Source: Amphiscolops sp. MND2022 (lineage: Eukaryota). Taken from it: a stretch of 64,000 nt of DNA. Each line of letters opens with the position of its first letter. Position 1 is the stretch's first letter. A program made the position numbers and the translations under genes. The stretch is from positions 74,960,001-75,024,000 of the forward strand of contig OZ076409.1 in assembly GCA_964187785.1 (NCBI GenBank), written 5' to 3'. Below are positions 1 to 61,284 of this stretch, one piece after another. Below the pieces are notes generated by a model. That model was not told the DNA's origin. It did no database searches and saw only the letters and a program-made list of their open reading frames with translations.

Positions 1-388
1 GCGCTGTTTAGTGCAGCAACGCTATTTAGGGCCTTAGGACCCATTTTGGTAAGTTTTGAAACCGTCTTATCCTTCTAATAGCACAAAACAGTTTCGTACA
101 TTCCATCTCCCTCTCGGGGGAGATGAGAATGTACTCACAAAAAACCAAGTATGACACCCCCAATCTACCAGCAATGGCGTTATGAAGGCAGCAGCGTGAG
201 CTTTACAGTAGTCTCTACGTGTGTTGACTCTGAGCTAGTAATGTATTTATATCACCAAACGTGAATGAAATGTTTTACTCCAAAATTATTTTACATTTAA
301 TATGTCATCAATGCACGCATTTCAATCTATCTACAACTACTACTACTACCTACCCCCGTGCTAGTCACGCACAAGCCTGCAGCGCTAG
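1..388 (+). repeat. Cassette D0, 3' part of a D-family unit (partial)
   Basis: Aligns by eye to the D1 tail from ~45550 (gctgtttagtgcagcaa...accgtcttatcc...gtacattccatctccc hairpin); ends gcgCTAG. Confidence 0.8.
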
Positions 389-424
389 GTGGTCCGGGGC
401 TGTATTGTGCCCCACAGTAGTCCT

Positions 425-459
425 TGCGAGGCCGGGGAGGGTCCCGATTGCCGAGCGCA
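425..459 (+). other. Conserved head stem-loop (A1 example; an equivalent follows every core)
   Basis: tgcg-a-ggc-cggg-GAGGGT-cccg-att-gcc-gag-cgca; compensatory stems in other heads. Confidence 0.8.
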
Positions 460-1211
460 TTATCCAAAATACATCACTAGTCCACCGGGTCGGATTTCGG
501 CGATTTTGGAATCTAACCATACGATTTAAATAAAACTTTGCACACATACCTAAAATCAAATTATAAGAACTTTTTTCCCCTGACGTATCATCATTGAAAC
601 ATTTGTTGAAAAGTTATGTGCAAATGATCGTGTTTTTTGGCACTTTTTCGCATTTTTCACACAGTAGCTCCACACTTTACGCTATGCATTTGGCCCATTT
701 TTTGCGTGCGAGGCATAAATGATGTCATGTTCACACATGCCAAAAATTATTTCTCAATTCGCAACAGGAGTGGAGATATGGCGGATAATATAGGCGGAAA
801 AAATAACGAATACGAAAATTTGCACATATTTGGCCAACATTTGTTTGAAAAATGAGAAAAAGTAAAAAGTACGCGGATTGCTTTGAAACTTGGCACACAG
901 GTAGTAGAACAAATTCTAAGAACTTTTTTCTTCTGACGTTTTTCCGAAAAATTGCATCTTCAACCTATATTTGCAATATTTCGGGTTTTTTGATTCAACG
1001 TGATTTATCACTCACATATTCAAAGTCCATTTTCAGCATGAAGCAACGCAGATACCGGCAATGAGCACATATTGCAAAATCATCAACGGCCAACGGTCTA
1101 CCGAACAGTCCAAAAAAATTTTGCCCTCGGGCCCAATCAAAGTGGCCAAAGGTGCCAAAATGTTTTTTCTAACAGTATCACCATTACAAAATTGATGATT
1201 TGACCAGGAGG

Positions 1212-2390
1212 AACGGTCCGCACGGTCTCGGACCATAAGGTGAAAAAGTGTCAGTGAGTTATGGTGACGACCAAAATGACATCGGTAGACCTCTAGGAGG
1301 CCTCTGAAAAAAAATTGATTTTTTTGAGTCACGGTCCGAGTTGATCTGTTACGTTGTATGAACATTTCATAATCATGTTACTCATAACCGGGTGCAGATA
1401 GCACCGTTGGTCATCTTTATCAAAATGAACATTGGGCAGCGGTCTAACGATTGAGTGTAAAAAATATACCTTAGTTGCTATTGTGAAAGAAAAAAATTCT
1501 CAGAAGTGTTGTTTTCGATTTTTCATGTCGACTCGCAGTTACAAAAAGGTGATTTTCTCTTCAGGAACGGTCCGAACGGTCTAGGACCATAAGGTCAAAA
1601 ATTGTCAGTGTGACATGGTGGCGCCCAAAAACCCATCAGAACACTTGTAGGAAGCTTCTGAAAGAATATCGGATTTTTACGTGGGTCCGAGAGTTATACT
1701 GTCACATCGTAACAACATTTCGGGTATGCATATCTCCTGACAGAGTACAGATAGCATCATGGGTCACCTTTTCGAAAAAGAACGTGGGCCACTGGTCTAT
1801 CGATTGGTCATAAAAAGTTTTCAGTCACTGCTGCACGGCGTGCACAATATGCCAATATGGGGTATTTAGCATTTTTTTGCACGACTCGGACCTACAAAAG
1901 TCCCATTTCTGCTCCACCAACGGTCCGTACGGTCTTGAACCATAAGGTCAAAAAGTGTCAGTGTGCTATGGTGACGCCCAAAAACCCATCAGTACACTTG
2001 TAGAGTGCTTCTGAAAAATTTTGGAATTTTTAGGTGAGTCCGAGAGTTATAGAGAGTTATGTTGTCACATCGTAACTACTTTTCGGGTATGTATATCTCC
2101 TGACAGAGTACAGATAGCAACATGGGTCATCTTTTGGAAAGTAAACGTGGCCCACTGGCCTACCGAATGGTGATAAAAAGTTTTCACTAGTTGCTACAGG
2201 GAATGATAAAAGTGCTTACATGTGTTACTTACCATTTTTTTAGGCGACTCGGACTTACAAAAAGCTTATTTGCTCGCCAACAACGGTCTCTACGGTCTCC
2301 GACCATAAGGTCAAAAAAGTTTTGTGAGCTATGGTGACGCCCAAGAACCCATCAGTTTACCTGTAGGATGATTCTGAAAAAATTTGTTTT
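1212..2390 (+). repeat. ~354-bp internal tandem subrepeat of A cassettes (A1 example)
   Basis: aacggtcnnnacggtc...ccataaggt-aaaaa-tgtcagtg starts at 1212, 1566, 1919, 2282 (spacing 354, 353, 363). Four starts in A1-A5, five in A6-A8, one in C. Confidence 0.85.
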
Positions 2391-4247
2391 TTTCCAGTTC
2401 ACTATGTTAGATATTACATGGCGAACCGTGTTATTTTTCCAACAAAATTATGTTTTTGAGTGCCCGAAATTAGTTTTTAAAGCACAATAGCCACATAAAA
2501 TGTTGTTTTGCATAACATGGGATGTGAATAACATGAAAAAAGGGCCCACTGTGGGTTTGGGGTCATTTTGAAAAAATCAGCTGCCATTGGACGTTACACA
2601 TCAGAAAATCATACCTCACATATCAATATATGGGTTGAGTGAAAAATAGCTTAAATGATTTTTCAATCAATCAAGACCCTTTTTTGTTCACAACCACGTG
2701 TACAGCTGACGTTGAACGCATATTGATCTTCCGCAATGGTTACATTACGATTTTGAGTGACAAAAGCCCCGTTGACAAACAAAATTCCAAGATAAAGTTT
2801 GTTTCCAAATCATTTTTTGACGTATACGACCGCCAATTTCTGCCCACACACATCAATTATCCACTTCTCTTAGTCCAGTGACATGTGAAAAACACAACTA
2901 GGCATTGACAATCCACATACACTATAAATCGAGTAGTCATGGGCAACAATATTTACAAATCAGTAGTGAAATTTGTCTAAAATTGATAACACATCACAAT
3001 TTTGTTGGAATCAAACTAGCAAAATGGAGGTTTATCAGCAACTTTAGGCTTTCACAGCAACCCACTGGCCCTGTAATATAGGAAAAGGGTGTTTACCGAA
3101 CTTTTAAGGTTTTATTTCAGAGTCTGAGGTAGCTAAAAATATCATACTGAAGAGACGCATGACTTCAACTTCAGTATTTTTCCCGATGTGTCAGCACTTT
3201 TTTGGTATCGGCGGTCCCACCAATACTGTTTTTGGTCTGACACTAAACCTTAGGATCAACCAAGGTGGATACCAGACTTGAAAAATCATTGCAAGGAATT
3301 TCTACATGTCAAAAGTAGTGATGACAGGAGATATTTCCCAAAAATTCCAGTTATTTGTCACGTTCCATTGTGCCTTTTTTAATCGGTCCTTGTCGGTTAT
3401 GGTATTAACGCTCAACAACAACCTCACTGACAAGAAACAACTCGTTTATAGTTATAAAAAGTATTTATAATACAACCATGCTCGGTCTGGACAGGTTTTT
3501 CATCCCATTCGTTGTTAACAAGCAAATTTTTTTCCCCAAAAATCCAATTTTTGTCAGGTCGAAAATTGATTTCCCGTGTTTTGAACAACATTATTGTGTC
3601 TGACGTAACCTGTGGCCTCCAAAATACTGAAAAACAGATACATGACTGGTATCAAATGCTTCATTGACATGTGAGCCACGATAACACGTTTTGCAAAGAA
3701 AAATTCAACTTTTAAGTTAAAATTTTGAAGACACATTTTCATAATAAAAACAAAATTCATAAAAAGTAACTTATTTCCCGTCAAATACTATTGATATACT
3801 ATCAGTGTTGCTAATATGAGGTCTATACAGCGGTGTATGGGAAAAATGTGGCGCATAAAGCATTGTGTAACACAAAACGTTCCAAAGTACTGCGCATTTT
3901 TCACTGTACTTTTTGGACTCTATGACAAAAATTTGATAGTGTAAACATCAATGAGCAGTTCAATTTAGTACGATTATTCAACTGTGCAAATGTTTCAAAG
4001 TGCACGATCTTTCTGTTGTTCCAAAATCCTTTGTTACGGCTGAAAAGATTCATATGTTTTACAACGCAATGTTCATTAAAAGATAAATTAGCAAAGACTG
4101 AATCAATTTTACAAAAGCTAACAAACTTCTCAATACGTCTTTCAGTACTTGGATTTTGCAGACTATATAGATCTGATTTGCATTTTTATAAAGACATTAT
4201 AACTGAATATAGCATTTTTATAAAGAACTTATAAAAAAATTTCGTGA

Positions 4248-4286
4248 TAGCCTTCCAAGTTGGCCTTCGGCCAACTTGGAAGGCTA
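4248..4286. other. Perfect 18-bp-stem hairpin of A cassettes
   Basis: tagccttccaagttggcc-ttc-ggccaacttggaaggcta; copies at 9141, 15074, 19968, 24863, 36760; variants at 30808 and 41496. Confidence 0.9.
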
Positions 4287-5287
4287 GCACTCCAAATACC
4301 AAAAAACAGGAGTTCCTTTATTCTCAAAATAGCTGTGGACAGTTTCATTCAACTTTCTTTTCTCACGTTAATTGATAAATTCAGAACATAAACATTTCCA
4401 TTCGCTATAAGGAGATCATAATTGAGTTCCATAAAAACATCTTTCATTGTGTCGCTTAAAAATACCATAAAAACTAACTTGAAACATATGAATTGTATGT
4501 GGAACGTACATTCTATTTACCAGTGAGTGTCTACCCTTATTGGCTCCACCAAATCCTCTACCCCTCCACTAGACAGTACGTTACATCATACGTTGATGTA
4601 TTTCACAGTGGTGACATAGGGCCAAATAAAAAAGAAATGGAGTGTATGCATTGCTAATGTTATTAAGTCAGCCAATTGTGGTAGGAAAGGTTCAATACTA
4701 CGAAAAATATCTATTCCAACTGAAAATGATTTGGGGCAAACACATGACACACAAAAATACCTCAATAATTTTCACCAATCAAATTCTTCCACAAAAACTT
4801 TTGTGTCCGATGGTGTATAATTTCCTAATTTGGAATCAGCCAGTCACGTCATTTTCGCATCTCAGCTCGGTCATAACAGAGCGTTCTTTTTTGAAATTGT
4901 CTCTACCCAAATTCACGTAACGAGGCTGCTACGTCCCCTATTTGGAGTGTTATTAGTGTTTATAAGGGATTAATCACTCTAATGAACATATACTTCTAAT
5001 GTTGAAACTCTTTCACTTTTCTTTGTAAATTGTTAAAGTAGAACATTGCTGTTATTCAGCAGGAACTCGCTTTGGCTTGCAGAATGATGGAAAATAAATG
5101 ACAAGTCGCCCTGTAAGGCACCACGTGTCGTGGGGATGACAAATATGAAATAAGTTGAACACAACTAAGACTACTTTTGTCAACAGAAGGGAAAACGATA
5201 ATTTTAATTATGAAAATTTTCATGTTTTTTAATACACATTTTCCTCGCATCTCGGCAGTGCAACTGCCACAACCTCGCCTCCACTGG

Positions 5288-37786: not shown

Positions 37787-40700
37787 GTGGTTGGGGCGTT
37801 ATTCCCCACGAAGTTCGCGGCCGCGGGAGACGGGACCCGCGGACCGCCCATCCAATGCAAAAATATACACTCTAAACAGCACCATTATAAACACGATCTC
37901 GAAAATGAACCGTAGGAATGTCTTGAAATTTTGCATACGGATAGAAGAGAAAATTCTAAGAACTTTATCCTGCTGGCACTTTTCCGAAAAAAATGCCCTT
38001 CATGGGTTTTTTTGGGTTTTTTTTGGTTTTTTCTCATCTTTCTCATCTTTGATTAATCAATCACTGAATCAAAGGCCATTTTCAGCATGAAGGAATGCCC
38101 GTAGCGGCAAAGTGCACTTTTACAAAAATCATCAACAGTCAACGGTCTTTCGAACGGTCCAAAAAATTTTCCCCCCGGGGGCATCCAAAGTGCCGAAAAG
38201 TGCCAAAATATTTTTTTGGTCTGAATCATTTTGATGAAATTGTTGATTTGAGCAGCAGGAACGGTCCGCACGGTCTCGGACCATAAGGTCAAAAATTGTC
38301 AGTGAGTTATGGTGACGACCAAAATGACATTGGTTGAGCTGTAGGAGGCCTCTGAAAAAATTTGAATTTTTTGAGTCTACAATCCGAGCTGAACTGTTAC
38401 GTAATATGAACTTTTCAGTACTATGTTGCCAATGACCGAGTACAGATAGATGCATGGGTCAGCCTTATTGAAATGAACATTGGGCACTGGGCTACCGATT
38501 GAGTGCAAAAATTATAGCCTAGTTGCTGTAGTCGAAGAACAAAATTCTCAGAAGTGTTACTTTCAATTTGTCATGTTGACTCGGAGTTACAAAAAGGTGA
38601 TTTTCTCGCCAACAACGGTCCGAACGGTCTTCGACCATGAGATCAAAAATTGTCAGTGTGCTATGGTGACGCCCAAAAACCCACCGGAACAAGCGTAGGA
38701 TGCTTCTGAAAAAATTTCGAATTTTTACGTCGGCCCAAGAGTTATTGTGTTACATCGTAACAACTTTTCGTGTATGCATATCTCCTGACAGAGTACAGAT
38801 AGCATCATGGGTCACCTTTATGAAAGTGAACGTGGGCCACTGGTGAACTGCATGGTTATAAAAAATTTAGACTAAGTGCTGCACGGCGTGAATAATATGC
38901 CAAGATGTGTTATTTACGATATTTTAGCACGACTCGGACTGACAAAAAGCCTATTTCTGCCCCAGCAACGGTCCAAACGGTCATCAAGTGTAAGGTCAAA
39001 AAATGTCAGTGTGACATGATGGCGCCTAAAAACCCACCAGAACATTGGTAGGAAGCTTCTGGAAAAAATTCGAATTTTTACGTGGGCCCGAGAGTTATGA
39101 TGTTGCATCGTAGCAACATTTCGTGCATGCATATCTCCTGACAGAGTACAGATAGCATCATGGGTCACCTTTTTGAAAAAGAACGTGGGCCACTGGTCTA
39201 TCGATTGGTTGTAAAAAGTTTTCAATCACTGCTGCACGGCGTGAATAATATGCCAATATGTGGTATTTAGCATTTTTTTGCACGACTCGGACCTACAAAA
39301 GTCCCATTTCTGCTCCACCAACGGTCCGTACGGTCTTCAACCATAAGGTCAAAAAGTGTCAGTGTGCTATGGTGACGCCCAAAAACCCACCAGTACACTT
39401 GTAGAGTGCTTCCGAAAAATTTTGGAATTTTTAGGTGAGTCCGAGAGTTATAGAGAGTTATGTTGTCACATCGTAACTACATTTCGGGAATGTATATCTC
39501 CTGACACAGTACAGATACCAATATGGGTCATCTTTTGGAAAGTGAACGTGGGCCACTGGCCTACCGAATGATGATAAAAAGTTTTCACCAGTTGCTACAG
39601 GGAGTGATAAAAGTGCTTACATGGGTTACATAGCATTTTTTCAGGCGACTCGGACTTACAAAAAGCTCATTTGCTCGCGAACAACGGTCTGTACGGTCTC
39701 CACTCAATGGGTCGAAAATTTTTTGTGGGCTATGGTGACGCTCAAAAACCCATCAGTTTACTTGTGGGATGATTCTGTAAAAATTTAGTGTTTCCGTGCA
39801 GACTATGTTACATATTACATTGGGAACCGTGTTTTTTTCTCACCAAAATCATGTTTTTGAGTGCCCAAAAACAATTTTTAAAGCCCAGTAGCCACCTAAA
39901 ATGTTCTTTTGCATAACATGGGATGTGAATAACGTGAAGAAAGTGCTCACTGTGGATTTGGAGTTATCTCGAAAAAATCAGCTGCCATTAGACGTTACAT
40001 TACATAAAATCGTTCCTTACATATCGATTCATGGGTTGAGTCAAAAACAGCTAAAGTTCTTTTTCAGTCAATCAAGACACTTTTTTGTTCACAACCAAGT
40101 GTACAGCTGACGTCGAACCTATTTTGACCTTTCACAATGGTTATAGTTCAATTTTGAGGTACAAAAGCCTCTTTGACAAACAAAATTCCATGATGAAATT
40201 GCTTTCCAAATCATTTTTTGAAGTATAGGAACGCCATTTTTAGCCGAGAACCATCTAATATCCACTTCTCTTGGCCCAGTGGCTTGTGAAAAATACAACT
40301 GGGCATTGACAAGGCACAAGGACCTTACTTCGAGTAGTAATGTGCCACAATATTTGCTAATCGATAGCAAATTTTGTTGAAAATTGATACAACATCACAT
40401 TTTTGGTGGACTCGAAATGACAAAATGGAGCTTCAGCAGCAACTATTGGCTTTTAGTGCAACTCACTGGCACTGTAGCTTACGAAAATACGGTTTACAGT
40501 AGTTTCATGCTACTTTTTCAGAATCTGAGGTACATAAAAATATCATACTGAATAGACATATAACTTCCACATCGGAATTTTTCCGGATGTGTCGCCGCTT
40601 TTTTGGTATCAGCGGTCCTACCAACACTGTTTTTGGTCTAACACTAAACCCGAAGATCAACCAAGGTGTATATCAGACTTGTAAAATCAATGCAAGGACT

Positions 40701-45930: not shown

Positions 45931-48900
45931 GTGGTCAGTGCTGTTGCGTTCATTTTTTTCCGGCCGTGGGGGAGGGCCCCTCTGAGGCCGGTCATTTTTC
46001 AGGTAACAGCTTTCTTATACAAAAAAGCGGGAAAAAACCTCAGTGCTCAAATCCCAACCGTCAGAATGAGCTGAAATTTGGCATGTAGCTAGTGCATTGC
46101 AAATGACTACGATGGGTTATAACGCTATGTTTGGCAAAATTGGTTTTGTTGCATTTTTTTTGTCATATAGGGCCAAAAATGGCCTTTTTTGCGTATTTTT
46201 TGCTTGACTAGCTAATAACTCGCGTTGGGTTGGTACTAGCGATACGGGTGTGGGGTATGGAATTGAAAGATTACCAAGTACCTTGCTGATGACGTTATTT
46301 GATTTCCGCTCACATCACCCCCCACGCCGGAAATGCCCAATTTGTCACTTCCGGTCGCAATTTTTGACTTTTTTGGATGGAGTTAAAACCCATTTCCGGT
46401 GTGAAGGAGTGGGTTGAGCGCTTCGACCCCAATATACTAAAAGTAGGTTTAGACAAAGTCCTATTAGGAAAAAAGTAATGTAAGCCCGTACCTATCACCC
46501 CCTCACCGGAAATAGGGGTCACGCCTCCTTTTTCTGTGTTGCAAAAGTGACATGTGCACATTTGTCCAACTCCGAAGCCCCGGAGCACCGTGGGACCGTT
46601 ATACTTTCTAAACACCTATCCCACACGCTACCGGAAATGACCGGAAGTTTCACCGGAAATGACATCCTTGGACCGGAAATGGTCAAAAAAGGACTTTTTC
46701 AATAAAAAAAAGACACTTTTGGTGCAATTTTTAGGCAAAAAGCATAATTCGTGATACGCTTGTTGCAGTTGAAAGGGCCATTGTTCAGCAAGAATGCATA
46801 CAGCATTACGTAGCACATCAAGTGGTTGATAATTTTTCGTCCATAATATCCATAGGACCGGAAATGGCCATTTTTGAATCGGAAATTTCTTCAGCTTGAT
46901 TTTTAACAAGTTTTTCCACAATATTAGTGTAGGAATTGCTCGTCGGATGCTTTAGGTCTATTTTAAAACTAGCTGACTGCTTCTTAGAAATGTATTTCAG
47001 AAATTCCAACCAATTCGAGATTACCGGAAATGGGAGTAATTGCCTCCTTTATGACCTTTGAATGATAAATTGTTAAAATCCGCAAATTATTTTATTCCAC
47101 AACTGTTGCTCAGGTTATATCTAAGCAATAACATCTGCTTGTTTTGAAGTGCTGTATTGTGGGAGATACAAATATTGCTTTTTAATAGTAATACATACGT
47201 GATATTCGCCGCAATAAAGATTTTTCAAATCAACCATTTTGAAGTCCTACTGGTGTTCCGCACACCCGAAATAATTTAAGTTTCTAGTTTCGATTTTCAG
47301 GCTTCCGCGACTATTGAGTTGAGATGATAGTTTTCACGTTCTCTGCAAAACGGGCATTTCATTGTGTATGTGACATTTATTGGGTTGTTTCACATGGTAA
47401 TTCAAAACTAATTGATCATACAATTTAGAACAATTGAAAATTTTCAATTGAACAATAAATGTTTTAATAATTTCTCTTTCGTTAAAGATACTCTTTTGTG
47501 GCCATTAGAACAGGTTGAATTGGTTGAATAAGTAACCAGTGCGATACATCGTTTAATACATAACGTTTGACATCGTTTTCTTGCGAACAAAGACAAGCAT
47601 GATTTGTTGGAAGTTTTTACCATATCGCTTCAAATCGGTCGTGACAAACAATGAATTTCTCGTTTTAATTGCTACTTCGAAAGCAGCCTGAAAACGCAAA
47701 TCGATCTATTGAGTTATGGAGATGCAACTAAGCATTTCAAGTCTGGGTTTCAATTTAATACTATCACTCCGGACTATTTTTATGTCGCAAAAGTGATAAA
47801 GGGTGTTAGCAAGGTTAAAAACATCGAACAATTTTAAAAATGATGCCTCCGGAAAGGGAAGAAAAATGAGTTTTCCTGTCAAAACAATGATAACCACGTA
47901 CGAAACATCAAGTATTTGCATTGTTCAATAGTCCAAAACATGAATGAAGTTTTTAAATATCCAAGAGTTTCTAATCAAGCATGCGTTTCAAATGTCTCAC
48001 AGGGCAGCATCGTTTTCAAAAAACAGTGCTTTCAATGTGGTTTCATACCAGCAAAACGAACGCAGGCACAACCACACTCTCAAAATTCTTGCACAACAAC
48101 CAATTTCTTTGAAAATCCTATTTGATTCCTCAAGGTATATGGTGAGAACCCTGTTGGGTTCCAAAGTTGATGTGCTGTTTTCTTGGGTTTGCGAGATAAG
48201 TTACAACGGAAATCTGAAAGCAGGTCGTCTCAATAAAATACCTGTTGCTCTTTAAACGATTGGACTTAAGTAGTCGAAATTTATTCTCAGACACTTTCGA
48301 TCAGAGAATGTTTGAGTCCTAACGTTCGAATCAGGTTGGTTTCAGGTGGCTCGAAGTGCCAGCTGAACCAACCTTTCAAATAAAGAAAAACCCCACACCT
48401 CCCTTCATGCCACGCTACCCCGTATAGCGTTTCAACTTGACAGAAATTGGAACGTTTGATTTTGGCGTCGCTTGGGATTGACACACCAGTGTTGATACTA
48501 AATTTGGCAAAGAGAAATCGCACAAATGATTGTTTCTGTTTTTCCCTTTGATTTAGTGTGTCGAGCGTACAAAGCAGTTTGGGAAACTAACTTGCATTTC
48601 CACTGAACGAAAAGCAAAAGTAGTAACATTGAAAACTTTCGGAATAAATTTAATCAGGTTTCCGTATTTGTGAGATCAGCTGCCACTCAGTTATCAGTTA
48701 CATCTTTCAAATTTTTAAGAACAACTAATCAAACTTTGCTCGACTCTCTTGGATAAGGCAACAATAGTTTACTAATCTGTACTCGTGGAAAAAAGTCAAC
48801 TGCCGGGTCAAAAACAATCTGTATGTAACTTTTCTCTCGTGCAAAGTTATTTTTTACCCCCTCTGACTCAACTATAGCATGTACGTAATGAAACCAATAA

Positions 48901-49002
48901 CACCTTCAACTGTTAATCAACGCCCACCGTCCGTAGGCATGCCGAGGCATGCCTTTCGACGACGCGCGCCAAAAACAATATAACGGCGCCACCCGCTTCT
49001 GG
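45931..49002 (+). repeat. Cassette E1 (3072 bp)
   Basis: Between cores 45927 and 48999; first of five tandem copies. Confidence 0.9.
48928..48961. other. E-type subterminal hairpin
   Basis: cgtc-cgt-aggcatgc-cgag-gcatgcct-ttc-gacg, ~70 bp before the core in all E copies, D2 and D3. Confidence 0.85.
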
Positions 49003-52000
49003 GTGGTCAGTGCTGTTGCGTTCATTTTTTTCCGGCCGTGGGGGAGGGCCCCTCTGAGGCCGGTCATTTTTCAGGTAACAGCTTTCTTATACAAAAAAGC
49101 GGGAAAAAACCTCAGTGCTCAAATCCCAACCGTCAGAATGAGCTGAAATTTGGCATGTAGCTAGTGCATTGCAAATGATTAGGATGGGTTATAACGCTAT
49201 GTTTGGCAAAATTGGTTTTGTTGCATTTTTTTTGTCATATAGGGCCAAAAATGGCCTTTTTTGCGTATTTTTTGCTTGACTAGCTAATAACTCGCGTTGG
49301 GTTGGTACTAGCGATACGGGTGTGGGGTATGGAATTGTAAGAATACCAAGTACCTTGCTGATCACGTTATTTGATTTCCGCCCACATCACCCCCCACGCC
49401 GGAAATGCCCAATTTGTCACTTCCGGTCGCAATTTTTGACTTTTTTGGATGGAGTCAAAACCCATTTCCGGTGTGAAGGAGTGGGTTGAGCGCTTCGACC
49501 CCATTATACTAAAAGTAGGTTTAGACAAAGTCCTATTAGGAAAAAAGTAATGTAAGCCCGTACCTATCACCCGCTCATCGGAAATAGGGGTCACGCCTCC
49601 TTTTTCTGTGTTGCAAAAGTGACATGTGCACATTTGTCCAACTCCGAAGCCCCGGAGCACCGTGGGACCCTTATACTTTCTAAACACCTATCCCACACGC
49701 TACCGGAAGTGACCGGAAGTTTCACCGGAAATGACATCCTTGGACCGGAAATGGTCAAAAAATGACTTTTCAATGCAAAATAGACACATTTGGTGCGATT
49801 TTTAGGCAAAAAGCATAGTTCGTGAAACGCTTGTTGCAGTTGGAAGGGCCATTGTTCAGCAAGAATGCGTACAGCATTACGTAGCACATCAAGTAGTTGA
49901 TACTTTTTCGTCCATAATATCCTTAGGACCGGAAATGGCCATTTTTGAATCGGAAACTTCTTCAGCTTGATTTTTAACAGGTTTTTCCGCAATATTAGCG
50001 TAGGAATTGCTCGTCGGATGCTGTAGGTCTATTTTAAAACTAGCTAACTGCTTCTTAGAAATGTATTTCAGAAATCCCAACCAATTCCAGATTACCGGAA
50101 ATGGGAGTAATTGCCTCCTTTATGACCTTTGAATGATAAATTGTTAAAATCCGCAAATTATTTTATTCCACAACTGTTGCTCAGGTTATATCTAAGCAAT
50201 AACATCTGCTTGTTTTGAAGTGCTGTATTGTGGGAGATACAAATATTGCTTTTTAATAGTAATACATACGTGATATTCGCCGCAATAAAGATTTTTCAAA
50301 TCAACCATTTTGAAGTCCTACTGGTGTTCCGCACACCCGAAATAATTTAAGTTTCTAGTTTCGATTTTCAGGCTTCCGCGACTATTGAGTTGAGATGATA
50401 GTTTTCACGTTCTCTGCAAAACGGGCATTTCATTGTGTATGTGACATTTATTGGGTTGTTTCACATGGTAATTCAAAACTAATTGATCATACAATTTAGA
50501 ACAATTGAAAATTTTCAATTGAACAATAAATGTTTTAATAATTTCTCTTTCGTTAAAGATACTCTTTTGTGGCCATTAGAACAGGTTGAATTGGTTGAAT
50601 AAGTAACCAGTGCGATACATCGTTTAATACATAACGTTTGACATCGTTTTCTTGCGAACAAAGACAAGCATGATTTGTTGGAAGTTTTTACCATATCGCT
50701 TCAAATCGGTCGTGACAAACAATGAATTTCTCGTTTTAATTGCTACTTCGAAAGCAGCCTGAAAACGCAAATCGATCTATTGAGTTATGGAGATGCAACT
50801 AAGCATTTCAAGTCTGGGTTTCAATTTAATACTATCACTCCGGACTATTTTTATGTCGCAAAAGTGATAAAGGGTGTTAGCAAGGTTAAAAACATCGAAC
50901 AATTTTAAAAATAATGCCTCCGGAAAGGGAAGAAAAATGAGTTTTCCTGTCAAAACAATGATAACCACGTACGAAACATCAAGTATTTGCATTGTTCAAT
51001 AGTCCAAAACATGAATGAAGTTTTTAAATATCCAAGAGTTTCTAATCAAGCATGCGTTTCAAATGTCTCACAGGGCAGCATCGTTTTCAAAAAACAGTGC
51101 TTTCAATGTGGTTTCATACCAGCAAAACGAACGCAGGCACAACCACATTCTCAAAATTCTTGCACAACAACCAATTTCTTTGAAAATCCTATTTGATTCC
51201 TCAAGGTATATGGTGAGAACCCTGTTGGGTTCCAAAGTTGATGTGCTGTTTTCTTGGGTTTGCGAGATAAGTTACAACGGAAATCTGAAAGCAGGTCGTC
51301 TCAATAAAATACCTGTTGCTCTTTAAACGATTGGACTTAAGTAGTCGAAATTTATTCTCAGACACTTTCGATCAGAGAATGTTTGAGTCCTAACGTTCGA
51401 ATCAGGTTGGTTTCAGGTGGCTCGAAGTGCCAGCTGAACCAACCTTTCAAATAAAGAAAAACCCCACACCTCCCTTCATGCCACGCTACCCCGTATAGCG
51501 TTTCAACTTGACAGAAATTGGAACGTTTGATTTTGGCGTCGCTTGGGATTGACACACCAGTGTTGATACTAAATTTGGCAAAGAGAAATCGCACAAATGA
51601 TTGTTTCTGTTTTTCCCTTTGATTTAGTGTGTCGAGCGTACAAAGCAGTTTGGGAAACTAACTTGCATTTCCACTGAACGAAAAGCAAAAGTAGTAACAT
51701 TGAAAACTTTCGGAATAAATTTAATCAGGTTTCCGTATTTGTGAGATCAGCTGCCACTCAGTTATCAGTTACATCTTTCAAATTTTTAAGAACAACTAAT
51801 CAAACTTTGCTCGACTCTCTTGGATAAGGCAACAATAGTTTACTAATCTGTACTCGTGGAAAAAAGTCAACTGCCGGGTCAAAAACAATCTGTATGTAAC
51901 TTTTCTCTCGTGCAAAGTTATTTTTTACCCCCTCTGACTCAACTATAGCATGTACGTAATGAAACCAATAACACCTTCAACTGTTAATCAACGCCCACCG

Positions 52001-52073
52001 TCCGTAGGCATGCCGAGGCATGCCTTTCGACGACGCGCGCCAAAAACAATATAACGGCGCCACCCGCTTCTGG
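49003..52073 (+). repeat. Cassette E2 (3071 bp)
   Basis: Between cores 48999 and 52070. Confidence 0.9.
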
Positions 52074-55000
52074 GTGGTCAGTGCTGTTGCGTTCATTTTT
52101 TTCCGGCCGTGGGGGAGGGCCCCTCTGAGGCCGGTCATTTTTCAGGTAACAGCTTTCTTATACAAAAAAGCGGGAAAAAACCTCAGTGCTCAAATCCCAA
52201 CCGTCAGAATGAGCTGAAATTTGGCATGTAGCTAGTGCATTGCAAATGATTAGGATGGGTTATAACGCTATGTTTGGCAAAATTGGTTTTGTTGCATTTT
52301 TTTTGTCATATAGGGCCAAAAATGGCCTTTTTTGCGTATTTTTTGCTTGACTAGCTAATAACTCGCGTTGGGTTGGTACTAGCGATACGGGTGTGGGGTA
52401 TGGAATTGTAAGAATACCAAGTACCTTGCTGATCACGTTATTTGATTTCCGCCCACATCACCCCCCACGCCGGAAATGCCCAATTTGTCACTTCCGGTCG
52501 CAATTTTTGACTTTTTTGGATGGAGTCAAAACCCATTTCCGGTGTGAAGGAGTGGGTTGAGCGCTTCGACCCCAATATACTAAAAGTAGGTTTAGACAAA
52601 GTCCTATTAGGAAAAAAGTAATGTAAGCCCGTACCTATCACCCCCTCACCGGAAATAGGGGTCACGCCTCCTTTTTCTGTGTTGCAAAAGTGACATGTAC
52701 ACATTTGTCCAACTCCGAAGCTCCGGAGCACTGTGGGACCCTTATACTTTCTAAACACCTATCCCACACGCTACCGGAAGTGACCGGAAGTTTCACCGGA
52801 AATGACATCCTTGGACCGGAAATGGTCAAAAAAGGACTTTTTCAATAAAAAAAAAGACACTTTTGGTGCAATTTTTAGGCAAAAAGCATAATTCGTGATA
52901 CGCTTGTTGCAGTTGAAAGGGCCATTGTTCAGCAAGAATGCATACAGCATTACGTAGCACATCAAGTGGTTGATAATTTTTCGTCCATTATATCCATAGG
53001 ACCGGAAATGGCCATTTTTGAATCGGAAATTTCTTCAGCTTGATTTTTAACAAGTTTTTCCACAATATTAGTGTAGGAATTGCTCGTCGGATGCTTTAGG
53101 TCTATTTTAAAACTAGCTGACTGCTTCTTAGAAATGTATTTCAGAAATCCCAACCAATTCCAGATTACCGGAAATGGGAGTAATTGCCTCCTTTATGACC
53201 TTTGAATGATAAATTGTTAAAATCCGCAAATTATTTTATTCCACAACTGTTGCTCAGGTTATATCTAAGCAATAACATCTGCTTGTTTTGAAGCGCTTTA
53301 TTGTGGGAGATACAAATATTGCTTTTTAATAGTAATACATACGTGATATTCGCCGCAATAAAGATTTTTCAAATCAACCATTTTGAAGTCCTACTGGTGT
53401 TCCGCACACCCGAAATAATTTAAGTTTCTAGTTTCGATTTTCAGGCTTCCGCGACTATTGAGTTGAGATGATAGTTTTCACGTTTTCTGCAAAACGGGCA
53501 TTTCATTGTGTATGTGACATTTATTGGGTTGTTTCACATGGTAATTCAAAACTAATTGATCATACAATTTAGAACAATTGAAAATTTTCAATTGAACAAT
53601 AAATGTTTTTAATAATTTCTCTTTCGTTAAAGAGACTCTTTTGTGGCCATTAGAACAGGTTGAATTGGTTGAATAAGTAACCAGTGCGATACATCGTTTA
53701 ATACATAGCGTTTGACATCGTTTTCTTGCGAACAAAGACAAGCATGATTTGTTGGAAGTTTTTACCATATCGCTTCAAATCGGTCGTGACAAACAATGAA
53801 TTTCTCGTTTTAATTGCTACTTCGAAAGCAGCCTGAAAACGCAAATCGATCTATTGAGTTATGGAGATGCAACTAAGCATTTCAAGTCTGGGTTTTAATT
53901 TCATTCTATCACTCCGGACTATTTTCATGTCGCAAGAGTGACAAAGCGTCTTAGCAAGGTTAAAAACATCGAACAATTTTAATAATAAAGCCTCCGGAAA
54001 GGGAAAAAAATGAGTTTTCCTGTCGAAACAATGATAACCACGTACGAAACATCAAGCTTTTGTATTGTTCAATAGTCCAAAACGTGAATGAAGTTTTTAA
54101 ATATCCAAGAGTTTCTAATCAAGCATGCGTTTCAAATGTCTCACAGGGCAGCATCGTTTTCAAAAAGCAGTGCTTTCAGTGTGGTTTCACACCAGCAAAA
54201 CGAGCGCAGGCACAACCACATTCTCAAAATTCTTGCACAACAACCAATTTCTTTGAAAATCCTATTTGATTCCTCAAGGTATATGGTGAGAACCCTGTTG
54301 GGTTCCAAAGTTGATGTGCTGTTTTCTTGGGTTTGCGAGATAAGTTACAACGGAAATCTGAAAGCAGGTCGTCTCAATAAAATACCTGTTGCTCTTTAAA
54401 CGATTGGACTTAAGTAGTCGAAATTTATTCTCAGACACTTTCGATCAGAGAATGTTTGAGTCCTAATGTTCGATTCAGGTTGGTTTCAGGTGGCTCGAAG
54501 TGCCAGCTGAACCAACCTTTCAAATAAAGAAAAACCCCACACCTCCCTTCATGCCACGCTACCCCGTATAGCGTTTCAACTTGACAGAAATTGGAACGTT
54601 TGATTTTGGCGTTGCTTGGGGTTGACACACCAGTGTTGATACTAAATTAGGCAAGAGAAATCGCAGAAATGATTGTTTCCGTTTTTTTCCTTTGATTCAG
54701 TCTGTCGAGCGTACAAAGCAGTTTGGGAAACTAACTTGCATTTCCACTGAAAGAAAAAAAAGTAGTAGCCTTGCGAACTCCTGGAAGAGATTGAATCAGG
54801 TTTCCCTATTTGTGAGATCAGCTGTCACTCAATTATCAATTACTTTTTAAAAAAAATTATGAACAACTAATCTAACTCTGCTCGACTCTCTTGGATAATG
54901 CAACAATAGTTTACTGATCTGTACTCGTGAGAAAAAAAATCAACTGCAGGTCCAAAAACAATCTATATGTATTTGGTTTATTCCGTGCAAAGCTTTTTTT

Positions 55001-55144
55001 CACACCATGTGACTCAACTATAACATGTATGTAATGAAACCAATAACACCTTCAACTATCAACGCTCACCGTCTGTAGGCATGCCGAGGCATGCCTTTCG
55101 ACGACGCGCGCCGAATACAAATTAACGGCGCCACCCGCTTCTGG
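52074..55144 (+). repeat. Cassette E3 (3071 bp)
   Basis: Between cores 52070 and 55141. Confidence 0.9.
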
Positions 55145-58100
55145 GTGGTCAGTGCTGTTGCGTTCATTTTTTTCCGGCCGTGGGGGAGGGCCCCTCTGAG
55201 GCCGGTCATTTTTCAGGTAACAGCTTTCTTATACAAAAAAGCGGGAAAAAACCTCAGTGCTCAAATCCCAACCGTCAGAATGAGCTGAAATTTGGCATGT
55301 AGCTAGTGCATTGCAAATGATTAGGATGGGTTATAACGCTATGTTTGGCAAAATTGGTTTTGTTGCATTTTTTTTGTCATATAGGGCCAAAAATGGCCTT
55401 TTTTGCGTATTTTTTGCTTGACTAGCTAATAACTCGCGTTGGGTTGGTACTAGCGATACGGGTGTGGGGTATGGAATTGAAAGATTACCAAGTACCTTGC
55501 TGATGACGTTATTTGATTTCCGCTCACATCACCCCCCACGCCGGAAATGCCCAATTTGTCACTTCCGGTCGCAATTTTTGACTTTTTTGGATGGAGTTAA
55601 AACCCATTTCCGGTGTGAAGGAGTGGGTTGAGCGCTTCGACCCCAATATACTAAAAGTAGGTTTAGACAAAGTCCTATTAGGAAAAAAGTAATGTAAGCC
55701 CGTACCTATCACCCCCTCACCGGAAATAGGGGTCACGCCTCCTTTTTCTGTGTTGCAAAAGTGACATGTGCACATTTGTCCAACTCCGAAGCCCCGGAGC
55801 ACCGTGGGACCCTTATACTTTCTAAACACCTATCCCACACGCTACCGGAAGTGACCGGAAGTTTCACCGGAAATGACATCCTTGGACCGGAAATGGTCAA
55901 AAAATGACTTTTCAATGCAAAATAGACACATTTGGTGCGATTTTTAGGCAAAAAGCATAGTTCGTGAAACGCTTGTTGCAGTTGGAAGGGCCATTGTTCA
56001 GCAAGAATGCGTACAGCATTACGTAGCACATCAAGTAGTTGATACTTTTTCGTCCATAATATCCTTGGGACCGGAAATGGCCATTTTTGAATCGGAAACG
56101 TCTTCAGCTTGATTTTTAACAGGTTTTTCCGCAATATTAGCGTAGGAATTGCTCGTCGGATGCTGTAGGTCTATTTTAAAACTAGCTAACTGCTTCTTAG
56201 AAATGTATTTCAGAAGTCCCAACCAATTCCAGAATACCGGAAATAAGAGTAATTGCCTCCTTTATGACCTTTGAATAATAAATTGTTAAAATCCGCATAT
56301 TATTTTTTTCCACACTTGTTGCTGAGATTATATCTAAGCAATAACATGTGCTTGTCAGGAAGTGCTGTAATGTGGGAGTTACGAATATTGCTCTTTAAGA
56401 GTATTACATACGTGAATATCCGCCGTAATAAAGATTTTTAAAACAACCACTTTTGAAGTCCTATAGATTGTCCGCACACCCGAAACAATTCAAGTTTCTA
56501 GTTTCGATTTTAAGGCTTCCGCGACTATTTAGTTGAGATGATAGTTTTCACGTTCTCTGCAAAACGTGCATTTCATTGTGTTTTTGACATTTATTGGGCT
56601 GTTTCACATTGTAATTCAAAACTAATTGATCATACAATTTGGAACAATTGAAAATTTTCAATTGAACATTAAATGTTTTAATAGTTTCTCTTTCGTTGAA
56701 GATACTATTTTGTGGCCATTAGAACAGGTTGAATTAGTTGAATAAGTAGCCAGTGCGATACATCGTTTAATAAATAGCGTTTGACATCGGTTTTTTTGCG
56801 AACAAAGACAAGCATGATTTGTTGAAAGTTTTTACCATATCGCTTCAAATCGGGTGTGACAAACAAGGAATTTCTCGTTTTATGTGCTACTCCGAAAGCA
56901 ACCTGAAAACGCAAATCGATCTATTGAATTATCGAGATGAAACTAAGCATTTCAAGTCTGGATTTCAATTTAATTCTATCACTCCGGTCTATTTTTATGT
57001 CGCAAGAGTGATAAAGCGTGTTAGCAAGGTTAAACACATCGAACAATTTTAATAATAAAGCCTCCGGAAAGGGAAGAAAAAATGAGTTTTCCTGTCAAAA
57101 CTATGATAACCACGTACGAAACATCAAGTTTTTGTATTGTTCAATAGTCCAAAACGTGAATGAAGTTTTTAAATATCCAAGCGTTTCTAATCAAGCATGT
57201 GTTTCAAATGTCTGACAGGGCAGCATCGTTCTCAAAAAACATTGCTTTCAATGTGGTTTGATACCAGCAAAACGAACGTAGGCACAACCAGATTCTCAAA
57301 TTTCTTGCAAAACAGCCGATTTCTTTGAAAATCCTAATTGATTTCACAGGGTATATGGTGAAACCCTGTTGGATTCCAAAAATGAAAAGCTGATTTCTTG
57401 GGTTTGCGAGATAAAAGACAACGGGAATCTGAAAGCAAGTCATCTCAATAAAATACATGTTGCTCTTTAAACAAATGGACTTTAGTAGTCGAAATTTTTT
57501 CTCAGACACTTTCGATCAGAGAATGTTTGAGTCCTAACGTTCGAATCAGGTTGGTTTCAGGTGGCTCGAAGTGCCAGCTGAACCAACCTTTCAAATAAAG
57601 AAAAACCCCACATCTCCCTTCATGCCACGCTACCCCGTATAGCGTTTCAACTTGACAGAAGTTGGAACGTTTGATTTTGGCGTCGCTTGGGATTGACACA
57701 CCAGTGTTGATACTAAATTTGGCAAAGAGAAATCGCAGAAATGATTGTTTCTTTTTTTCCCTTTGATTTAGTCTGTCGAGCGTACAAAGCAGTTTGGGAA
57801 ACTAACTTGCATTTCCACTGAACGAAAAAAAGTAGTAGCCTTGCAAACTCCTGGAAGAAATTGAATCAGGTTTTCCTATTTGTGAGATCAGCTGTCACTC
57901 AATTATCAATTACTTTTTCAAAAACTTTTAGGAACAACTAACCTAACTCTGCTCGACTCTCTTGAATAATGCAACAATCGTTTACTGATCTGTACTCGTG
58001 AGAAAAAAATCAACTGCAGGTCCAAAAACAATCTATATATCTTTGGTTTATTCCGTGCAAAGCTTTTTTTCACACCATGTGACTCAACTATAACATGTAT

Positions 58101-58214
58101 GTAATGAAACCAATAACACCTTCAACTATCAACGCCCACCGTCCGTAGGCATGCCGAGGCATGCCTTTCGACGACGCGCGCCGAAAACAATCTAACGGCG
58201 CCACCCGCTTCTGG
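55145..58214 (+). repeat. Cassette E4 (3070 bp)
   Basis: Between cores 55141 and 58211. Confidence 0.9.
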
Positions 58215-61200
58215 GTGGTCAGTGCTGTTGCGTTCATTTTTTTCCGGCCGTGGGGGAGGGCCCCTCTGAGGCCGGTCATTTTTCAGGTAACAGCTTTCTT
58301 ATACAAAAAAGCGGGAAAAAACCTCAGTGCTCAAATCCCAACCGTCAGATTGAGCTGAAGTTTGGCATGTAGCTAGTGCATTGCAAATGATTAGGATGGG
58401 TTATAACGCTATGTTTGGCAAAATTGGTTTTGTTGCATTTTTTTTGTCATATAGGGCCAAAAATGGCCTTTTTTGCGTATTTTTTGCTTGACTAGCTAAT
58501 AACTCGCGTTGGGTTGGTACTAGCGATACGGGTGTGGGGTATGGAATTGTAAGAATACCAAATACCTTGCTGATCACGTTATTTGATTTCCGCCCACATC
58601 ACCCCCCACGCCGGAAATGCCCAATTTGTCACTTCCGGTCGCAATTTTTGACTTTTTTGGATGGAGTCAAAACCCATTTCCGGTGTGAAGGAGTGGGTTG
58701 AGCGCTTCGACCCCAATATACTAAAAGTAGGTTTAGACAAAGTCCTATTAGGAAAAAACTAATGTAAGCCCGTACCTATCACCCCCTCACCGGAAATAGG
58801 GGTCACGCCTCCTTTTTCTGTGTTGCAAAAGTGACATGTGCACATTTGTCCAACTCCGAAGCCCCGGAGCACTGTGGGACCCTTATACTTTCTAAGCACC
58901 TATCCCACACGCTACCGGAAGTGACCGGAAAATTCACCGGAAATGACATCCTTGGACCGGAAATGGTCAAAAAAGGACTTTTTCAATAAAAAATAGACAC
59001 TTTTGGTGCAATTTTTAGGCAAAAAGCATAATTCGTGGTACGCTTGTTGCAGTTGAAAGGGCCATTGTTCAGCAAGAATGCATACAGCATTACGTAGCAC
59101 ATCAAGTGGTTGATAATTTTTCGTCCATAATATCCATAGGACCGGAAATGGCCATTTTTGAATCGGAAATTTCTTCAGCTTGATTTTTAACAAGTTTTTC
59201 CACAATATTAGTGTAGGAATTGCTCGTCGGATGCTTTAGGTCTATTTCAAAACTAGCTGACTGCTCCCTAGAAATGTATTTCAGAAATCCCAACCAATTC
59301 CAGATTACCGGAAATGGGAGTAATTGCCTCCTTTATGACCTTTGAATGATAAATTGTTAAAATCCGCAAATTTTTTTATTCCACAACTGTTGCTCAGGTT
59401 ATATCTAAGCAATAACATCTGCTTGTTTTGAAGTGCTCTATTGTGGGAGATACAAATATTGCTTTTTAATAGTAATACATACGTGATATTCGCCGCAATA
59501 AAGATTTTTCAAATCAACCATTTTGAAGTCCTACTGGTGTTCCGCACACCCGAAATAATTTAAGTTTCTAGTTTCAATTTTCAGGCTTCCGCGACTATTG
59601 AGTTGAGATGATAGTTTTCACGTTCTCTGCAAAACGGGCATTTCATTGTGTATGTGACATTTATTGGGTTGTTTCACATGGTAATTCAAAACTAATTGAT
59701 CATACAATTTAGAACAATTGAAAATTTTCAATTGAACAATAAATGTTTTAATAATTTCTCTTTCGTTAAAGATACTCTTTTGTGGCCATTAGAACAGGTT
59801 GAATTGGTTGAATAAGTAACCAGTGCGATACATCGTTTAATACATAGCGTTTGACATCGTTTTCTTGCGAACAAAGACAAGCATGATTTGTTGGAAGTTT
59901 TTACCATATCGCTTCAAATCGGTCGTGACAAACAATGAATTTCTCGTTTTATGTGCTACTCCGAAAGCAACCTGAAAACGCAAATCGATCTATTGAATTA
60001 TCGAGATGAAACTAAGCATTTCAAGTCTGGATTTCAATTTAATTCTATCACTCCGGTCTATTTTTATGTCGCAAGAGTGATAAAGCGTGTTAGCAAGGTT
60101 AAACGCATCGAACAATTTTAATAATAAAGCCTCCGGAAAGGGAAGAAAAAATGAGTTTTCCTGTCAAAACTATGATAACCACGTACGAAACATCAAGTTT
60201 TTGTATTGTTCAATAGTCCAAAACGTGAATGAAGTTTTTAAATATCCAAGCGTTTCTAATCAAGCATGCGTTTCAAATGTCTGACAGGGCAGCATCGTTC
60301 TCAAAAAACATTGCTTTCAATGTGGTTTGATACCAGCAAAACGAACGTAGGCACAACCAGATTCTCAAATTTCTTGCAAAACAGCCGATTTCTTTGAAAA
60401 TCCTAATTGATTTCACAGGGTATATGGTGAAACCCTGTTGGATTCCAAAAATGAAAAGCTGATTTCTTGGGTTTGCGAGATAAAAGACAACGGGAATCTG
60501 AAAGCAAGTCATCTCAATAAAATACCTGTTGCTCTTTAAACAAATGGACTTTAGTAGTCGAAATTTTTTCTCAGACACTTTCGATCAGAGAATGTTTGAG
60601 TCCTAACGTTCGAATCAGGTTGGTTTCAGGTGGCTCGAAGTGCCAGCTGAACCAACCTTTCAAATAAAGAAAAACCCCACATCTCCCTTCATGCCACGCT
60701 ACCCCGTATAGCGTTTCATTTTGACAGAAGTTGGAACGTTTGATTTTGGCGTCGCTTGGGATTGACACACCAGTGTTGATACTAAATTTGGCAAAGAGAA
60801 ATCGCAGAAATGATTGTTTCTTTTTTTTCCCTTTGATTTAGTCTGTCGAGCGTACAAAGCAGTTTGGGAAACTAACTTGCATTTCCACTGAACGAAAAAA
60901 AGTAGTAGCCTTGCAAACTCCTGGAAGAAATTGAATCAGGTTTTCCTATTTGTGAGATCAGCTGTCACTCAATTATCAATTACTTTTTAAAAAATTTTTA
61001 GGAACAACTAACCTAACTCTGCTCGACTCTCTTGAATAATGCAACAATCGTTTACTGATCTGTACTCATGAGAAAAAAATCAACTGCAGGTCCAAAAACA
61101 ATCTATATATCTTTGGTTTATTCCGTGCAAAGCTTTTTTTCACACCATGTGACTCAACTATAACATGTATGTAATGAAACCGATAACACCTTCAACTATC

Positions 61201-61284
61201 AACGCCCACCGTCCGTAGGCATGCCGAGGCATGCCTTTCGACGACGCGCGCCGGAAACAATCTAACGGCGCCACCCGCTTCTGG
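58215..61284 (+). repeat. Cassette E5 (3070 bp)
   Basis: Between cores 58211 and 61281. Confidence 0.9.

Follow-up and report, generated by a model that had tools for sequence, protein, structure and literature searches.

The hairpin at positions 425-459 marks the 5′ end of a Helitron-like element, one of a group whose autonomous members encode an HUH Rep-helicase (RepHel). A preliminary description of this DNA had offered two readings of the structure, a recognition end of single-stranded DNA or the 5′ domain of a structured RNA, and it is the first that our results bear out. With some reserve, we incline to a wider reading in which these elements represent a widespread, undescribed Rep-Pif1-GIY-YIG clade with IS91-type ends, whose origin hairpin serves as an integration address and whose transposase, an integrase specific for junctions, assembles at least 60 coding and non-coding families into multi-megabase arrays of one orientation. 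As part of the same reading, such junction-stacked arrays would be a eukaryotic counterpart of the integron cassette array, built by HUH chemistry.

Structure of the array

The window, by which we mean the whole 64,000-nucleotide stretch analysed here, is C1:74960001-75024000 of a 1.07-Gb eukaryotic assembly. It contains no ORF of more than 145 aa, and tblastn with 13 RepHel proteins as queries recovered no RepHel remnant anywhere in it. Cores of the form CT[AG]GGTG[GC] are found 22 times on the plus strand and never on the minus strand of the window, and each is a switch between repeat units.

389-64000, plus strand: head-to-tail array of units of 1.0-4.9 kb, all in plus orientation, extending past both sides of the window
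385-392, plus strand: tail-head junction CTAG^GTGG, with the putative nick or joining point between 388 and 389
389, 5288, 10181, 11217, 16112, 21010, 25903, 26934, 31842, 32876, 37787, plus strand: array heads, first half
42521, 43591, 44661, 45931, 49003, 52074, 55145, 58215, 61285, 62559, 63848, plus strand: array heads, second half
389-5287, plus strand: non-autonomous unit of 4,899 bp, GTGG...CTGG
45931-61284, plus strand: five 3.07-kb units, with ends in common with a 14-kb RepHel-encoding unit at G000:C1:71601597
48936-48953, plus strand: subterminal tail hairpin (stem of 8 bp) lying 40-58 nt upstream of the 3′ CTRG, a candidate terminator
52007, 55078, 58148, 61218, 62491, 63783, plus strand: further copies of the tail hairpin
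1566-2381, plus strand: internal ~363-bp tandem subrepeats of the 4.7-4.9-kb families
4248-4286, plus strand: perfect hairpin of 18 bp inside units of the 4.7-4.9-kb families
9144, 15077, 19971, 24866, 36762, 41503: further copies of the left-arm motif of the 4248 hairpin
96-134, plus strand: internal long palindrome of the ~1.27-kb families, ~260-320 nt upstream of the 3′ end; also at 45643, 62263 and 63534

The 3.07-kb family matches the 14-kb RepHel unit at 96% over its first 907 bp and at 94% over its last 86 bp and is, as judged from these matches, a deletion derivative of that coding unit. The 4.9-kb family, represented by the unit at 389, matches the sampled autonomous units over only 74 bp. 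An exact 18-mer of the tail hairpin is present in 41 of 60 families, and some tails also carry small variable hairpins, the conserved one lying 40-58 nt upstream. The ~363-bp subrepeats (1566-2381 and homologues) occur in two to three copies of ~78% identity, and the palindromes at 4248-4286 and 96-134 are each specific to different unit families.

The same organization continues well outside the window. In the 264 kb around it there are 142 cores on the plus strand, and neither of the two matches on the minus strand is a head. Heads, all in plus orientation, were present at all 11 positions sampled in C1:71.0-76.0 Mb (14 blocks of 10 kb) and were absent from four blocks beyond C1:76.6 Mb; among the heads listed, the first lies at C1:70.5 Mb. 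The largest single-orientation array, G000:C1:~70.5-76.5 Mb, thus spans about 6 Mb, and other large arrays lie at C1:~38.0-38.2 Mb, C3:~2.4-3.8 Mb, C2:~102.4-103.9 Mb, C8:~25.7 Mb and C5:~22.7 Mb. Plain satellite DNA was ruled out by the discrete ends, the solo insertions and the coding partners. An origin from a tyrosine recombinase or a retro-element was likewise rejected, since a scan of 264 kb of array revealed no ORF of either kind.

Ends and target sites

The element reads GTG...CTRG and is inserted after CTNG, with one G formally ambiguous (that at 388 can be assigned to the tail or to the head side). In a census of 1,261 copies of one tail type, CTAG was followed by GTG in 1,219, by GT(A/C/T) in 19, by AT in 16 and by TT in 7, and in no case by C or by G and a base other than T; CTA followed by a base other than G was seen 5 times, against 5 in a reversed control. 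As a few of the 1,219 GTG will be host DNA, the head-joined share of these tails is put at about 96%. The corresponding census of one head type gave CTRG before the head in 863 cases and CTYG in 7, with no other base at -3 or -4; a base other than G at -1 was seen twice, against three times in the control, and one of the two is a real head. GTGG or GTGC begins 182 of 184 heads, which were gathered with an RT start, and solo copies start with GTG directly after host DNA.

Where both flanks of an off-junction target site could be reconstructed, the site was CTNG^DT in 16 of 20 cases (the exceptions are L240, L241, L257 and L264). No target-site duplication was found, either on comparing a nested insertion with its empty site or at the off-array sites, and a target between T and T, as in HLE2, was not seen at the off-junction sites. 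At L255 (G000:C1:76.236 Mb) a ~34-bp post-tail spacer stands on both sides of one unit and resembles a duplication. Of 36 off-array tails, 10 are short 3′ pieces that lack a head within 10 kb, in a search that was based on tails and is biased accordingly. Tail-only pieces of this kind, shorter than about 200 bp and ending in an intact CTAG^DT, are L235, L238, L239, L242, L246, L247, L250, L252, L253 and L263.

Order of families and growth of arrays

Clustering at 90% identity divided 176 sampled units into 63 clusters. A run of 142 consecutive units belongs to 49 clusters and forms 120 distinct neighbour pairs, against 127.7 ± 2.7 for random order (P 0.006), and neighbours of the same family number 18 against 5.9 expected. 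Among 184 junctions there are 136 distinct combinations of tail and head, and one tail type precedes 14 head types in 17 cases. The order of families is therefore largely shuffled. Exchange between identical units creates no new neighbours, and we infer from this that most junctions are separate joining events; the excess of same-family neighbours and the slight shortage of distinct pairs indicate that local duplication also acts, and duplicated multi-unit blocks are present in the arrays.

It could be argued that the hairpin is simply an origin mark without active targeting, and that concatemeric rolling-circle products, together with unequal exchange and the selective removal of scattered copies, account for the arrays. 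Tandem Helitron arrays are indeed described from plants and bats (PMC5876387, PMC12628747), and the excess of same-family neighbours and the duplicated blocks would be expected. We nevertheless regard this explanation as unlikely, since concatemers would give arrays of one family rather than the 49 families in 142 consecutive units seen here. The 176 sampled units also offer 1,504 internal CTNG^DT sites, which exceed junctions 8:1 and are almost unused, with only two nested insertions, and three insertions missed an existing end by 13, 16 and 17 bp, each sitting at the next CTNG^DT. The rarely used internal sites and the near-end insertions together point to end-directed targeting, on which local duplication is superimposed.

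The head hairpin

396-413, plus strand: small first hairpin, located in the spacer that leads from the junction to the main one, in some families only
425-459, plus strand: main head hairpin, an outer stem with a tandem G.A/A.G pair, a 3′ bulge and an inner GGG/CCC stem
437-442, plus strand: loop GAGGGT of the main head hairpin
37817-37847, plus strand: variant of the head hairpin in which the loop is AGACGGGA (8 nt) and the outer stem is re-paired throughout (z -2.7)
45960-45991, plus strand: hairpin at the head of a 3.07-kb family unit (z -2.4)

The hairpin at 425-459 and the six further examples given in the preliminary description have the sequences reported there, and the claim of a conserved AGGG-type loop holds: the loop is KAGGGN in 21 of the 22 window heads and AGACGGGA in the remaining one, and in all 22 it starts 41-48 nt after the CTRG^GTG junction. 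The inner GGG/CCY stem and the loop are nearly invariant. In 21 of 24 arm types, taken from 246 heads, the distance from junction to loop start is 39-45 nt despite the variable sequence of the spacer; the small first hairpin reaches a dG of -2 or below in 19 of 60 families. Taken alone, the sequence 420-465 folds no better than its shuffles (z 0.11, with 105 of 200 shuffles equally good). Of six cited hairpins only those at 37812-37852 and 45955-45996 reach z < -2 on the plus strand; of the 24 arm types only 9 reach z < -2. A ~2.2-kb family with six head variants (for example G000:C1:74888866; similar heads start GTGGAGG) lacks the AGGG loop and occurs in arrays with normal junctions, and for this reason the hairpin is not strictly required.

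Strong covariation had been proposed for the stem as a whole, and it is the outer stem for which the proposal stands; the inner stem that had been cited is conserved and does not covary. When 14 of the 22 window heads were aligned with MAFFT, RNAalifold returned only 4 pairs with a covariation term of 0.03, that is, just the invariant inner stem, because in a plain alignment the variable bulge misregisters the outer stem. Once a variable 3′ bulge is allowed the outer stem covaries, with G-C, C-G, A-T and T-A swaps in columns -4 to -11. In the set of 24 arm types the energy of the outer-arm duplex is -8.2 for cognate arms against -5.6 ± 2.2 for non-cognate arms, a difference reached by none of 20,000 permutations, and a strand-symmetric pairing score is 18.7 against 15.7 ± 1.7, reached by none of 100,000. 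Reducing the set to 14 dissimilar groups, which only approximates a full tree-based correction, did not abolish the signal (18.9 against 15.9), so that, to this approximation, the loss of covariation after phylogenetic correction by which the earlier claim was to be judged was not observed.

The preliminary description had the hairpin fold on the plus strand. G.T pairs in the outer stem number 23 and A.C pairs 3, although this ratio is to be read against a non-cognate background of 34:14 that exists already because the 5′ arm is G-rich. A tandem GA/GA closes the stem in 8 arm types and TC/TC in none, and the plus strand folds better than the minus strand in 20 of 24. Tandem GA pairs are stable in DNA, and folding programs do not score them as pairs. 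The tandem GA closure favours folding on the plus strand.

A reversed polarity, in which transfer of the minus strand would begin at CYAG and the hairpin would serve as a terminator before a CAC 3′ end, seems to us improbable given these G.T and tandem-GA pairs. It would accommodate the tail-only fragments with intact CTAG, which resemble one-ended transposition from the tail, as well as a metagenome locus, L197, whose motif lies on the strand opposite to the ORF, and Helitrons with reversed ORF orientation have been described (PMC3627910, PMC13085455). On the other hand CTRG is the canonical Helitron 3′ end, the CTNG before the break matches IS91, and 41 of 60 families have a tail hairpin distinct from the one at the head.

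The idea of a structured-RNA 5′ domain found no support in Rfam, which gave no match at gathering thresholds in the 64-kb window and none at E <= 1 on the heads in its first 12 kb. More generally, it is highly improbable that the hairpin acts as RNA, whether as the 5′ domain of a transcript or as a self-cleaving motif, and that the units move or are controlled through RNA. Pairs compatible with G.U and tandem GA are motifs of RNA as well, but the partner in the array is an HUH-helicase, poly(A) tails and target duplications are absent, and 264 kb contain no ORFs of at least 180 aa other than RepHel and two accessory ORFs.

Autonomous units

The nearest autonomous partner lies outside the window, 9-24 kb upstream. 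A 15-kb unit just upstream of the window has a 2,369-aa frame with Helitron_like_N and PIF1 domains, and the next coding unit in the array has a C-terminal GIY-YIG domain as well. Units of 12-15 kb with open frames of 2,369-2,380 aa, each starting with the head hairpin, occur in eight of the ten regions that we looked at. Seven of the nine regions fetched elsewhere around such hits are arrays of like build, and two have broken copies in which a CTAG tail but no head was detected. Frames of ~2,375 aa are numerous at C1:73.4-76.5 Mb, all on the plus strand, and a natural intact RepHel lies, for example, at G000:C8:25696550-25703671. The proteins carry an HUH motif (EFQ...H.H) and two tyrosines (YxxKY/YxxSY), match Pfam Helitron_like_N at 30-40 bits (cut-off 28.9) and PF05970 (PIF1) above its cut-off, and find Pif1 helicases as their best PDB sequence matches.

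The C-terminal GIY-YIG nuclease is probably accessory because its motif, intact in young copies, is degenerate though alignable in two array-resident long-ORF copies of one lineage (L039:781-7887 and L168:2890-9999). We consider it very unlikely that this fused domain instead recognises the junction or hairpin and cleaves the target in the manner of a homing endonuclease, with the copy, also a 5′-truncated one, being made from the cut end. Against such a role stand the degenerate motif, the 46 of 159 long clade proteins (some of them truncated) in which the domain is undetected, and off-array sites without target-site duplication; for it speak the wide occurrence of the domain (113 of 159 with our own profile built from 7 proteins, 17 of 19 diverse clade proteins by Pfam), its intact state in young copies, and the short 3′ fragments.

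The two accessory ORFs lie downstream of RepHel and have no Pfam match. One, of ~380 aa (L031:7978-9126), is OB-fold-like with a high Atlas score and a low recognition score; the other, of ~220 aa (L031:6312-6968), is like an SGNH/GDSL hydrolase, with similarly high Atlas scores. The resemblance to an OB-fold single-strand binder and an SGNH hydrolase comes from Atlas matches and is offered as a pair of leads. The source genome also contains canonical HLE1 and several DUF6570-bearing HLE2 (L157-L161, L163 and L170), and its HLE2 elements carry OTU, JAB, UCH or AP-endonuclease domains.

Distribution and phylogeny of the transposases

A search of 1.84 billion representative proteins, clustered at 50% identity, gave 344 clusters matching at E <= 1e-30. 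DUF6570 was detected in none of 159 clade proteins with our own profile and in 0 of 19 and 0 of 10 by Pfam, and is present in all five HLE2 references scanned. AP endonuclease was found in 0 of 159 by profile, its C-terminal position being held by GIY-YIG. In trees of the Rep and helicase regions all 115 members form one group (SH 1.0; UFBoot 100 in a 37-sequence subset), split by a branch of 1.04 from one HLE1 of this genome and six DUF6570-bearing references, these being the only references in a tree that has no clean HLE2 clade and no outgroup. The patristic distance from the clade to the HLE1 or DUF6570-bearing references is 4.7, compared with 3.3 between those references. The tree sample kept 127 of 166 proteins, both motifs being needed, and 19 near-identical ones were listed for removal; seven further HLE1 loci and L166 were left out, their helicase segment being unusable. 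By profile and tree, then, the transposases are a large clade outside HLE1 and HLE2, without DUF6570 and AP endonuclease, which may overlap the unclassified set of HELIANO or the Paramecium clade. The cluster names of 20 clade proteins are only 'predicted GIY-YIG superfamily endonuclease' or 'hypothetical protein', and a scan of viral contigs found no relative among 600 candidate stretches. Some relatives have a fused protease, Ulp1 in P0106 and OTU in P0017, P0036 and P0039.

The strict loop motif occurs 7 times in 55 metagenome loci, against a mean of 0.17 and a maximum of 2 in 30 shuffles, with paired flanks, and 5 of the 7 matches lie within about 60 nt of a contig end. Those in L189, L195, L197, L201 and L202, of which L201 and L202 look like one locus, flank proteins that are 24-26% identical to the query. 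The metagenome locus L183 consists of RepHel, then a tail that ends like the window tail at 42520, then a head. The same loop motif beside transposases of ~25% identity suggests that such an address would be ancient.

Relation to known elements

These elements work like a Helitron with IS91-type ends. They belong to the Helitron-like superfamily, lack the 5′ TC and the A^T target of HLE1, and lack the ATIR, the T^T target and the DUF6570 of HLE2. With HLE1 and Helraiser they share a RepHel with HUH, two tyrosines and a Pif1-like helicase, a 3′ CTRR end (CTAG is invariant in the censused tail type), the absence of target duplication, non-autonomous derivatives with both ends in common, and reported tandem arrays (PMC11417382, PMC5876387). 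They differ in beginning with GTG where HLE1 has TC, in a target of CTNG^DT instead of A^T, in the conserved 5′ hairpin, in the fused GIY-YIG, and in arrays that mix dozens of families. HLE1 has a short hairpin 10-12 nt before its 3′ end; here the conserved tail hairpin lies 40-58 nt away, and small variable hairpins are present in some tails. Core identity to the HLE1 of this genome is 19%, and the match to Helraiser is weak and confined to the helicase (E 2.6e-6).

Helitron2 has been described with a 5′ hairpin showing compensatory changes (PMC3627910, PMC5148889, PMC11417382); such a hairpin is present here, but it is subterminal (about 30-75 nt in) and outside any ATIR. Further likenesses to HLE2 are the OTU domain of some clade relatives and the CTAG in which the proto-Helentron is described to end, and one Sphagnum HLE2 is reported to carry GIY-YIG, with unclassified HLEs in 19 genomes (PMC11417382). 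An ATIR was not detected: the longest end match averages 4.8 nt, equally in cognate and non-cognate pairs, and reaches 8 bp in 1 of 60 families, the same as in the control. With no T^T target, DUF6570 or AP endonuclease either, and with a long separating branch (UFBoot 100), membership of HLE2 was rejected.

The IS91 family (IS91, IS801, IS1294) is likened to our elements by its end features. It has a Y2 HUH enzyme and no target duplication (PMC13181058, PMC5714925), a tetranucleotide target CTTG (CTNG here) adjoining the origin end, which for our elements is itself a deduction, a terminus CTCG (CTRG here) and imperfect subterminal palindromes at the origin. Its members are bacterial and stand-alone, without helicase or GIY-YIG, in contrast to the 2,370-aa Rep-helicase-GIY fusion found here, and mixed end-to-end arrays are not described for IS91 in the accessible text of these sources (PMC13181058, PMC5714925). 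The third clade formed by the Paramecium Helitrons is also further from HLE1 and HLE2 than those are from each other, and it is target-specific, with an absolute orientation bias, a 3′ end like the target and satellite-rich non-autonomous copies (PMC13085455). Its target is the telomeric C4A2 repeat and its end CCAA, the accessible text describes no self-stacking, and the term GIY-YIG is absent from that paper (PMC13085455).

The preliminary description had compared the hairpin with the ends read by IS200/IS605 TnpA and with attC folding. IS200/IS605 end hairpins are single-strand hairpins near a short cleavage motif, and integron cassette arrays are ordered, heterogeneous units joined at one site type. 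What can be kept of the comparison is the single-stranded DNA end; the enzyme here is a Helitron-type Y2 RepHel with IS91-like end logic, distinct from both the Y1 TnpA and the tyrosine recombinase, and the units are self-mobilising and replicative. No description of GTG...CTRG ends, a CTNG^DT target or mixed junction-stacked arrays was found in the accessible literature, a scope outside which lie subscription journals and Repbase and which also took in PMC6431247, PMC12628747, PMC10288648, PMC13404089 and 10.64898/2026.09.17.752431. That literature does describe tandem Helitron arrays and telomere-targeted Paramecium Helitrons (PMC5876387, PMC12628747, PMC13085455).

Proposed mechanism

By analogy with characterised systems, the hairpin is probably the origin-side bind site for RepHel and the genomic junction the preferred acceptor, because the junction would combine the nick motif with a Rep-binding hairpin. 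Rolling-circle initiators work with two sites, one for binding and one for nicking (PMC5714925), and the anatomy described above fits this scheme, with a CTNG^DT nick site, a spacer of near-fixed length and free sequence, and a hairpin with a fixed loop. Helraiser is reported to cleave the plus strand only, exactly at the RTS-LTS (tail-head) junction and reversibly (PMC5876387), and IS91 to need CTTG beside an oriIS with imperfect palindromes and to terminate at CTCG (PMC13181058).

In the mechanism that we propose, the nick made by RepHel would fall in the plus strand, at the CTNG^DT some 42 nt before the hairpin, and Rep would become attached to the 5′ GT as in Helraiser and IS91. The Pif1-like helicase would displace the plus strand, on which the hairpin could then fold, and copying would halt at the 3′ CTRG past the tail hairpin, yielding a circle whose CTRG^GT junction would be identical to the junction in the arrays. 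Integration would be the reversal of the nick, and a tail-head junction would be greatly preferred as a target to a bare CTNG^DT. Every insertion would regenerate two junctions, and an array would therefore grow in one orientation and mix any families that keep their ends. The near-miss insertions at 13, 16 and 17 bp are compatible with targeting directed by either the head or the tail, and the 10 of 36 off-array tails that are tail-only 3′ pieces are counter-evidence in that junction targeting does not predict them.

Implications

If this reading is true, a major branch would be added to the two-clade scheme of Helitrons, and the GTG...CTRG ends seem to connect the IS91 of bacteria with the Helitrons of eukaryotes. 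It would also give a testable answer to the question of how transposons build tandem, satellite-like blocks of chromosome, namely by using their own junctions as targets, which would explain why new copies are stacked exactly end to end as opposed to being scattered over the genome. The natural long open frames and the defined ends with a small origin structure make target selection by an HUH enzyme directly testable, and they suggest an integrase that could add DNA repeatedly at one planted landing site.
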